Shown here: positions 4,734 to 5,747 of the stretch, piece after piece
How positions within the stretch are numbered: position 1 is the stretch's first letter
How the letters are laid out: every line of letters starts with the position of its first letter
From: a virus
Lineage: Duplodnaviria; Heunggongvirae; Uroviricota; Caudoviricetes
Length of the DNA stretch: 5,747 nt
Virus record (IMG/VR): IMGVR_UViG_2671180577_000020
Reading direction: 5' to 3' (one strand)
Translations under genes and position numbers: made by a program
Notes under the pieces: model-generated
Databases searched by the model: none
The model's input: only the letters and a program-made list of their open reading frames with translations
Told to the model about the DNA's origin: nothing

Positions 4734-4758
4734 CCCTGCTCACCCTGTAACCATCATG

Positions 4759-4786
4759 AACCGCTGCGGCGGTTTTTTTATTTTCA
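4759..4786 (+). terminator. candidate intrinsic terminator or RNA-stabilising hairpin between TerL and the protease gene
   Basis: AACCGC-TGCG-GCGGTT (6 bp GC-rich stem, 4 nt loop; 4759-4774) followed by TTTTTTATTTTC. It lies inside the late operon, so it would have to be read through, for example by Q antitermination. Confidence 0.45.
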
Positions 4787-4796
4787 GGAGGCTGAT

Positions 4797-5747
4797 GTGA
4801 CTCTTAAACGGGCCTGTTCCCTGCTGACGGTGAAATCCTTCAGTGAGGATGAACGGGTGATCACCGGGATTGCGTCAACGCCTTCTCCGGATCGGGATGG
4901 TGACATCCTGGAGCCGGAGGGGGCGGAGTTTGGCAGTACGATCCCGTTTCTCTGGCAGCATGACCATTCCCGCCCTGTAGGCCAGTGTACGGTGCGTCGG
5001 GTCAGGGAAGGGCTGGAAATCACGGCAACACTGGTGAAGCCCGTACCGGATATGCCGTCGCAACTGGCTGCCAGGCTGGATGAGGTCTGGGCGGCCATTA
5101 AGACCGGGCTGGTCAGGGGGCTGTCCGTGGGCTTCCGTCCCCATGAATACACCTTTCTGGACGGAGGCGGACTGCATTTTCTGCGCTGGGAACTGATGGA
5201 GGTGTCTGCCGTCACCGTGCCCGCGAATGCGGAATGCACCATCCGGACCATTAAATCTTACGACCGCCCGTTTTCTGCCGCGTCCGGCAACCGGAAACCG
5301 GTGGTGAAAATCGCATCTTCTGCCGGCGCTGCGGCACAGTCAACAACCGTTTTTCATAAGGAAAAGACCATAATGAATATTGGCGAACAGATTAAAAGTT
5401 TTGAAAACAAGCGTGCAGCGCTGGCAGCCTCCCTTGAGGAGGTCATGACCAAAGCCGCAGAGGAAGGGCGCACGCTGGATGTGGAGGAGGAAGAGCACTA
5501 CGACAACACCGCAGCGGAAATCCGTCAGGTGGATGCGCACCTGAAGCGCCTGCGTGAACTGGAAGCCGGTAAGGCCGCCACGGCGCAGCCGGTGAAACAG
5601 GCCGGTAACGGGAATGTGGCCGCGGTGGCTTCTGCGCCGGTGATCCGTGTGGAGCAGAAACTGGATAAGGGGATTGGCTTCGCCCGCTTTGCCAAATCGC
5701 TGGCTGCGGCTAAAGGCGTCCGATCTGAAGCCCTGGAAGTGGCCCGT
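4797..5747 (+). CDS. HK97-family prohead serine protease (Peptidase S78/U35) continuing in frame into a capsid/scaffold-like N-terminal region; 3' end beyond the window
   Basis: GTG start at 4797 with SD CAGGAGG (4785-4791); the ATG at 4795 is followed at once by TGA. The N-terminal region carries HK97 prohead protease motifs: VKSFSEDERVITGIASTPSPDRDGDILEPEGAEF, FLWQHDHSRPVG, GLSVGF. The frame stays open with no stop to base 5747. The distal part (from 5373) is charged and predicted helical: NIGEQIKSFENKRAALAASLEEVMTKAAEEGRTLDVEEEEHYDNTAAEIRQVDAHLKRLRELEAG. Confidence 0.85.
   Translation, partial: MTLKRACSLLTVKSFSEDERVITGIASTPSPDRDGDILEPEGAEFGSTIPFLWQHDHSRPVGQCTVRRVREGLEITATLVKPVPDMPSQLAARLDEVWAAIKTGLVRGLSVGFRPHEYTFLDGGGLHFLRWELMEVSAVTVPANAECTIRTIKSYDRPFSAASGNRKPVVKIASSAGAAAQSTTVFHKEKTIMNIGEQIKSFENKRAALAASLEEVMTKAAEEGRTLDVEEEEHYDNTAAEIRQVDAHLKRLRELEAGKAATAQPVKQAGNGNVAAVASAPVIRVEQKLDKGIGFARFAKSLAAAKGVRSEALEVAR
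5373..5747 (+). CDS. possible in-frame internal start for a scaffold/delta-domain plus major capsid protein (HK97-type), nested in the 3' part of the protease ORF; partial
   Basis: ATG at 5373 preceded by a good SD (AAGGAAAAG, about 7 nt spacing). The downstream sequence resembles the N-terminal coiled-coil region of HK97-family major capsid proteins. Same frame as the protease, as with lambda C/Nu3 nested expression. Whether it is a true fusion, a nested start, or both cannot be decided from sequence. Confidence 0.5.
   Translation, partial: MNIGEQIKSFENKRAALAASLEEVMTKAAEEGRTLDVEEEEHYDNTAAEIRQVDAHLKRLRELEAGKAATAQPVKQAGNGNVAAVASAPVIRVEQKLDKGIGFARFAKSLAAAKGVRSEALEVAR

Follow-up and report, generated by a model that had tools for sequence, protein, structure and literature searches.

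The stretch of DNA analysed here, 5,747 nucleotides from a virus of the class Caudoviricetes (IMG/VR record IMGVR_UViG_2671180577_000020; hereafter the window), corresponds to the region of late genes in a lambdoid Escherichia coli prophage. Its last 1,014 nucleotides, positions 4,734 to 5,747, carry the start of a gene in which an HK97-type prohead protease, a linker, a delta/scaffold-like domain predicted to be helical and the major capsid protein (MCP) follow each other in a single open reading frame (ORF). The best explanation of the data, which is considered quite likely, is that one late gene located between TerL and the portal gene encodes a protease-linker-delta-MCP protein of 645 residues and is equipped with two in-frame translation starts, whose products would co-assemble with the protease tethered to the capsid. 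The protease-MCP fusion and the TerL-fusion-portal order are already known, widespread and long annotated. The result added to this architecture is comparative evidence for a putative internal initiation site, conserved among relatives, at ATG 5373.

Architecture of the protease-capsid gene

The coordinates of all features are collected in Table 1. A preliminary description of the window had placed the end of TerL at 4733 and the next gene at 4797, and both positions agree with the ORF coordinates. The gap is only 63 nucleotides long and, as also pointed out there, a portal gene therefore cannot fit between TerL and the protease. The ORF initiated at GTG 4797 stays open for 317 codons up to the end of the window, without any stop. 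Its first part had been described as an HK97-type prohead protease, an assignment now borne out by profile searches and by alignment. Peptidase_S78 (PF04586) matches residues 48 to 152 with an E-value of 5.5e-9 and 36.8 bits, for a cut-off of 21. TIGR01543 matches with an E-value of 1.1e-12 and 48.3 bits, under its equivalog cut-off of 59, which designates a homologue that does not pass the equivalog rule. Comparison of the first 156 residues to HK97 gp4 using BLASTP yields 29% identity (E=7e-9), in an alignment that stops at gp4 residue 162 of 225. The candidate catalytic His55 (4959-4961) is located opposite gp4 His65, and Ser110 (5124-5126) opposite gp4 Ser114, the two residues which we take to be catalytic in gp4; His55 and Ser110 are invariant among homologues. 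A PDB sequence search with the protease domain found no relative, and the predicted local distance difference test score (pLDDT) of an AlphaFold2 model ranges from 60 to 82 across the domain. Judged by its sequence, the 5' domain is an HK97-type (Peptidase_S78) prohead protease, for which proteolytic activity on the capsid precursor is a prediction only.

As the preliminary description had stated, the protease frame runs stop-free through the linker sequence FSAASGNRKPVVKIASSAGAAAQ, which is present in the ORF, into a charged delta/scaffold-like region, described there as coiled-coil. The linker varies in sequence and length among homologues, with insertions and deletions in the alignments, and the pLDDT falls under 50 for residues 142 to 193; in this model, the linker is probably disordered. 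Starting at Met193 (ATG 5373), the sequence is charged and predicted to be helical. The AlphaFold2 model, computed from a 17-sequence alignment and poor overall (mean pLDDT of 44), displays helices at 195-222 and 229-261 with a pLDDT of about 70. The major_cap_HK97 profile TIGR01554 begins to match with its position 3 at residue 204. The fragment present in the window covers only the first 76 positions of this profile, with a score of 16.4 bits, under the cut-off.

The remainder of the gene was read from near-identical phages. The 1,014-nucleotide stretch shares 99.3% identity with phage Lys8385Vzw and 98.9% with the Stx2c phage 2851 (Stx, Shiga toxin). No stop occurs soon after position 5747 in these relatives, where one 645-residue ORF ends in an HK97-fold MCP. 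The phage 2851 protein contains Peptidase_S78 at 48-152 and Phage_capsid at 386-635; the full-length relative scores 78.3 bits with TIGR01554 for a cut-off of 27.5, and 52.7 bits with PF05065 for a cut-off of 24.2. The family phrog_617 (PHROG 617) spans residues 1 to 639 of the phage 2851 protein (E=3.3e-261) and residues 1 to 317 of the window fragment (E=4.3e-127). A PDB sequence search with the fusion returned only a weak MCP match, 9d9w (E=0.0019). The protease-scaffold-capsid fusion proposed earlier is thus present as such in these phages, and the portal, supposed at the time to be encoded elsewhere, is their next large gene downstream: in phage 2851 the fusion ORF is followed by a 55-residue ORF, an HK97-type portal of 859 residues (Phage_portal, E=5.9e-81; TIGR01537, E=1.9e-104) and a head-tail adaptor.

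The feature is the start of a common, annotated gene of E. coli Shiga-toxin prophages, and the prophage concerned is of the long-tailed lambdoid (Stx-type) kind. Stx-converting and related E. coli phages (phage 2851, a Pankowvirus; YYZ-2008; BP-4795; Stx2 phage 1717; Lys8385Vzw) are 95-99% identical in DNA and protein and share the order HNH-TerS-TerL-fusion-small ORF-portal-adaptor, the window being a copy of their gene. Their records contain a single coding sequence labelled 'major head protein/prohead protease' (used for BP-4795, YYZ-2008 and the WGPS phages) or 'major capsid protein', with no internal start marked. A DNA identity of at least 90% to the stretch was observed in 93 phage records, mostly Stx1a-, Stx2a- and Stx2c-converting phages, inducible ones included. 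Of 5,426 complete E. coli genomes, 1,113 contain the whole window at a coverage of at least 80%, and a single genome may hold as many as 14 matching places, partial or full. In the one E. coli genome copy examined, the gene is uninterrupted and is annotated by the Prokaryotic Genome Annotation Pipeline (PGAP) as a single 1,938-nucleotide 'phage major capsid protein'.

When genomes were scanned, one for each species, 34 loci emerged. Enterobacterales, Proteus and Phlomobacter all maintain the HNH-TerS-TerL-[protease-delta-MCP]-portal-adaptor order. The core TerL-[protease-delta-MCP]-portal extends to alphaproteobacteria (Reyranella, Chelativorans, Mesorhizobium), Rhodobacterales, Burkholderiaceae and Candidimonas, and about 30 loci, distributed over gamma-, alpha- and betaproteobacteria, preserve TerL-[protease-MCP]-portal. 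A single ORF of 633 to 669 residues was complete, down to its stop, in 24 loci, distant genera included, and three further fused loci exit their contigs. Among clusters built at 50% identity, 127 of the 150 best matches are 600 to 720 residues long and nearly all are aligned as one stretch spanning the query. A more distant member, ORF003 of Pseudomonas phage PAJU2 (AP009624), is a listed structural protein labelled 'prohead protease fused capsid protein'; it is 48% identical over its full length and lies in the same TerL-fusion-portal order. A literature search found nothing on protease-capsid fusions in Stx phages; the paper on Sp5 morphogenesis treats a different, short-tailed head module, and a paper on an Antarctic Pseudomonas prophage contained no pertinent information.

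The candidate internal start codon at position 5373

The good Shine-Dalgarno (SD) sequence reported earlier for ATG 5373 is indeed present, as AAGGA at a 10-nucleotide spacing, but it is unremarkable when considered alone, and its significance arises only from conservation across relatives. This conservation was assessed in 29 fused loci (28 in addition to PAJU2) reaching down to 34% identity. A start codon occupies the first residue of the delta domain in all 29 (ATG in 27, GTG in one and TTG in one), and a purine-rich SD is located 6 to 10 nucleotides upstream in every case (AAGGA, AGGAA, AAGGAGG, AGGAGG, GAGG or, in three loci, the weaker AGGG). PAJU2 displays an internal ATG with AGGAGG at the homologous site. 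The amino acids encoded at the SD differ among the fused loci (KE, KG, TG, EV, QEG). When the alignment was scanned column by column, only the Met193 column was found to combine a start and an SD in all sequences; the runner-up reaches 20 of 26 and falls inside a conserved DDGGV motif. Of the 25 glycine codons among the six codons preceding the internal start, 20 are GGA, compared to 7.2% (95 of 1,311) in the remainder of the same ORFs. Such an enrichment, with amino acids that change, points to selection on the RNA sequence and not on the protein.

Two further properties of the RNA coincide with this site. In each ORF, few segments are less structured than the 60 nucleotides from -30 to +30 around the internal start (median rank 0.8%), which also correspond to a local trough in GC content, 0.33 versus 0.60 in the phage 2851 copy. 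At the protein level, a set of 128 full-length representatives sharing at most 50% mutual identity displays a methionine within three residues of the delta start in 115 cases and a valine or leucine in 12; other equally conserved methionine positions are found only in the structural core. Stand-alone capsid homologues in the representative library begin at query residue 193 to 196.

Unfused relatives carry a gene boundary in the same region. Snodgrassella alvi prophages, Burkholderia phage vB_FUBS1 and Moraxella phage Mcat6 share the module order with separate protease and MCP genes, the protease stop being located 0 to 24 nucleotides before the MCP start and the proteins being 32-39% identical. 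In Snodgrassella this MCP start falls opposite Met193 in the alignment. The MCP gene of vB_FUBS1 and of Mcat6 starts right after the protease stop, with a delta-domain N-terminus that looks similar. In two Snodgrassella alvi loci (L029 and L033, 6001-8048), a protease of 234 residues and an MCP of 439 residues starting from ATG 6729 are 24 nucleotides apart. Fused and unfused forms coexist within betaproteobacteria as well as within gammaproteobacteria, so that gain or loss of the protease/MCP junction has probably occurred repeatedly.

The start of the long form is conserved as well. The same GTG is annotated in phage 2851, and the homologous codon is mostly ATG in relatives, whose proteins begin with MTLKRAC. 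In the version found in E. coli and Stx phages, an ATG-TGA start-stop (ATGTGA, 4795-4800) overlaps the GTG of the fusion gene; this overlap, together with the weaker GTG codon, could reduce initiation of the protease-carrying form. Taken together, the comparison of nucleotide sequences speaks for a functional internal start at 5373, and the suggestion of nested in-frame expression made in the preliminary description gains support from it.

The proposed two-subunit scheme and its alternatives

Gene structure, domain identities, the conservation of both start regions and, in relatives, the position of the portal are established by the present analysis. From these we infer the production of two products and their co-assembly with a tethered protease. 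It appears reasonably likely that two capsid subunits originate from one frame through two conserved starts, a minor protease-tethered subunit delivering the protease and a major protease-free subunit building the shell, with a dosage governed by initiation strengths. The scheme can be briefly described as follows. Initiation at GTG 4797 would produce the full-length protease-linker-delta-MCP protein. Initiation at ATG 5373, with its own SD in an unstructured, A-rich patch, would produce a delta-MCP protein of 453 residues devoid of protease. As both products would share the delta-capsid body, they would co-assemble around the portal into a procapsid, in which the full-length minority would bring the protease into the shell in tethered form. 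This tether would substitute for the C-terminal targeting tail of free HK97-type proteases, and no targeting peptide would be needed. After assembly, the protease would cut off linker and delta domains and digest itself, permitting maturation of the shell. The stoichiometry of protease to capsid protein would be determined by the relative use of the two starts. HK97 Prohead 1 contains 415 MCP and about 60 protease copies, and D3 about 90 (PMC12749128). A sub-stoichiometric protease is normal in the HK97 lineage, which provides the rationale for two products. No report of such a two-subunit scheme was found for this gene family in the literature available.

A number of observations weigh against this scheme. 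In the phage 2851 ORF considered as a single sequence, about 10% of codon positions pair with the anti-SD equally well, and 5 of the 51 other in-frame ATG, GTG or TTG codons possess an equally good SD. The loci compared are related to each other, so that the 29 of 29 count, the binomial p-value of the GGA enrichment and similar figures overstate independence, although the column control retains phylogeny. The capsid half and the portal were read outside the window itself, from phages 98.9-99.3% identical. Domain limits are approximate, the AlphaFold2 model having been used for rough boundaries only in view of its low mean pLDDT. The literature available on this gene family yielded no report of two products, N-termini or ribosome profiling. 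In unfused relatives the site is a true gene start, so that a relic is conceivable and the A-rich patch could be a former intergenic region. A polyprotein with a 1:1 ratio is physically possible.

These last points lead to the strongest competing explanation, which is nevertheless unlikely. Translation would proceed solely from GTG 4797, every subunit would carry a protease (1:1) that is removed by self-cleavage together with the delta domain, and Met193 and its SD would represent a relic of an ancestral gene boundary or a constraint acting on the protein, such as a cleavage site. The uninterrupted ORF, its annotation as a single coding sequence in GenBank and by PGAP, the protease-MCP fusions annotated as single products in other phage groups and the unexceptional SD of the single sequence are all compatible with this explanation. 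A relic should decay, yet the start and SD persist in 29 of 29 loci from three proteobacterial classes while the surrounding linker varies freely. The motif is held at the nucleotide level, where rare GGA codons accompany amino acids that change, low RNA structure is maintained at the internal start, and known HK97-type proheads contain about 60 to 90 proteases for at least 415 MCPs.

It is very improbable that the fusion results from an artefact or from decay, that is, from the loss of a stop codon, from a frameshift or from faulty assembly of a defective prophage whose true genes are separate. Some relatives do possess separate protease and MCP genes, one Arsenophonus copy (L022) is a pseudogene and the portal is frameshifted in some records. 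The recurrence of the uninterrupted 633-669-residue ORF contradicts an artefact or pseudogene: it is found in the 93 phage records, with inducible Stx phages among them, in 24 complete copies from distant genera and in the 600 to 720-residue proteins that make up 127 of the 150 best 50%-identity clusters, and the layout of the window recurs in more than 1,100 complete E. coli genomes, with one examined copy uninterrupted. Finally, a 5' domain representing a portal remnant or an unrelated domain, with a portal absence that is only apparent, is hardly credible: the TIGR01543 score under its cut-off and the lack of a sequence relative in the PDB search would agree with a non-protease, but Peptidase_S78 scores above its gathering threshold, gp4 aligns with matching His and Ser, no portal match is obtained from the 5' domain and a complete HK97-type portal is located downstream in relatives, and the portal-fragment reading is contradicted on these grounds.

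Known head modules, neighbouring genes and significance

The module resembles that of HK97 by its protease family, by an MCP (gp5 in HK97) with an N-terminal delta/scaffold domain, predicted to be helical here, and by its HNH-TerS-TerL packaging genes. It differs by its gene order, HK97 displaying TerL-portal-protease-MCP with protease gp4 and MCP gp5 as separate genes. HK97 gp4 also possesses about 60 additional C-terminal residues, its capsid-targeting region, whereas the protease of this module passes through a 36-residue linker straight into the delta domain. Pairwise BLAST found no significant similarity between the MCP bodies of this module and of HK97. The canonical HK97/lambda order (TerL-portal-protease-[scaffold]-MCP) is not observed, the portal following the MCP in relatives. 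The head-module order is therefore non-canonical with respect to HK97 and lambda, as reported in the preliminary description, but the novelty this implied does not hold for a module that is widespread and long annotated.

Nested genes of a comparable design are known. In lambda C/Nu3 and in herpesvirus UL26/UL26.5, a long product with an N-terminal protease is accompanied by a more abundant truncated product from an internal in-frame start, which fixes the protease stoichiometry; lambda gpC belongs to a different protease family. The likeness resides in the single ORF, the N-terminal protease and the internal in-frame start with its own candidate ribosome-binding site. The C/Nu3 and UL26/UL26.5 systems yield a free scaffold as their nested product and encode the capsid protein in a distinct gene, whereas the nested ORF of the present gene comprises delta and MCP in one chain. 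OsHV-1 offers another example of a nested protease/scaffold gene (PMC11565193). Protease-MCP fusions also exist in other sequence families. The NCBIfam entry NF045541 ('prohead protease/major capsid protein fusion protein') describes the same architecture in a different family, the score being 54-57.7 bits for a cut-off of 525. The 'major capsid and protease fusion protein' of actinobacteriophages follows the same domain logic, with the protease N-terminal to an HK97-fold MCP, in a different sequence family, and the same holds for the fusion of thaumarchaeal proviruses (PMC6563490).

A few loci depart from the usual organization. In a Parasphingorhabdus locus (L034, 6001-7427), an MCP-like match (6001-6945) precedes a protease-like match (6969-7427), the reverse of the usual order, which could reflect a rearrangement or two adjacent elements. 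Three proteins of 1079, 1094 and 1091 residues (P0001, P0123 and P0132) carry about 440 additional N-terminal residues before the protease-capsid fusion, and P0001 also contains a TerL_ATPase domain. These additions could be TerL-fusion read-throughs or gene-calling artefacts.

The region downstream of the capsid gene shows particularities of its own. In phage 2851 (locus L001) the 55-residue ORF located between capsid gene and portal (11046-11210; phrog_829) is conserved, and small ORFs are also found at this junction in PAJU2, vB_FUBS1 and Mcat6. The phage 2851 portal (11213-13792) consists of an HK97 portal core (residues 45-388) and a C-terminal extension of about 460 residues, made of 3.3 copies of a 162-bp (54-residue) tandem repeat and a C-terminal domain. 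In PAJU2 the portal has 464 residues and is directly followed by the separate ORF007, to which the extension is homologous (E=2e-27). Attachment of this ORF007 homologue to the C-terminus of the portal is therefore a second gene fusion in the E. coli module. The portal gene is often frameshifted or split in annotated records.

Upstream of the protease, the TerL gap contains a terminator-like hairpin with a T-run. An equivalent element is present at the same position in most relatives examined, comprising all Enterobacterales and several more distant ones; it is seen from Enterobacter to Proteus, Phlomobacter, Snodgrassella and Candidimonas, with stem substitutions that preserve pairing. HK97 also has an annotated putative terminator directly 5' of its protease gene. 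A terminator-like element ahead of the most highly needed late protein is oddly placed; it may be subject to read-through under Q antitermination, or it may act on mRNA stability. A cos site in this gap is unsupported, the gap being occupied by the hairpin. An Rfam search of the window matched zero RNA families.

The other genes of the window are listed in Table 1. The lipoprotein-like ORF located between the lysis genes and the HNH endonuclease is labelled 'TonB family protein' by PGAP and 'Rz-like spanin' by PHROGs. Since the corresponding position of phage 2851 is occupied by a KilA-N gene, the ORF looks like an exchangeable moron.

Table 1. Features of the 5,747-nucleotide window, in order of position
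Feature	Position	Strand	Details
Rz spanin	20-598		With embedded Rz1-like ORF
TonB_C-domain lipoprotein	1143-1484		113 residues, lipoprotein-like; TonB C-terminal domain, E=5.8e-15
Small ORF, YlcI/YnfO/DUF3950 type	1616-1876	-	
HNH endonuclease	1858-2223		
TerS	2512-3075		
TerL	3072-4733	+	553 residues; Pfam TerL_ATPase E=1.5e-11, TerL_nuclease E=8.5e-10; annotated terL in phage 2851
Terminator-like GC hairpin and T-run	4758-4785	+	GAACCGC-TGCG-GCGGTTT; 7-bp stem, 4-nucleotide loop
Long-form translation start	4786-4799	+	SD AGGAGG 4786-4791, 5-nucleotide spacer, GTG 4797-4799
HK97-type prohead serine protease domain	4797-5264	+	Residues 1-156
Variable linker	5265-5372	+	Residues 157-192; contains SAASGNRKPVVKIASSAGAAAQ
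Candidate internal translation-initiation region	5358-5375	+	SD AAGGA 5358-5362, 10-nucleotide spacer, ATG 5373-5375 (Met193)
Delta/scaffold-like N-terminal domain (predicted helical) and beginning of HK97-fold MCP	5373-5747	+	ORF exits the window; 328 further codons in relatives

The fusion and its gene order are ordinary for a very common prophage head module of E. coli and Proteobacteria, and alone they change nothing. For annotation, labels such as 'major capsid protein', 'prohead protease' or 'hypothetical' conceal that protease, scaffold and shell all come from one gene. The internal start, if true, would constitute a simple genetic rule keeping the protease sub-stoichiometric in phages with a fused protease-capsid gene. 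It would also represent a natural delivery of cargo into HK97-type shells by delta-domain tethering, of relevance to capsid engineering, and a phage counterpart of herpesvirus UL26/UL26.5 in which the capsid protein itself is the nested product. As Stx phages are medically important, a defined assembly pathway is of some applied interest.

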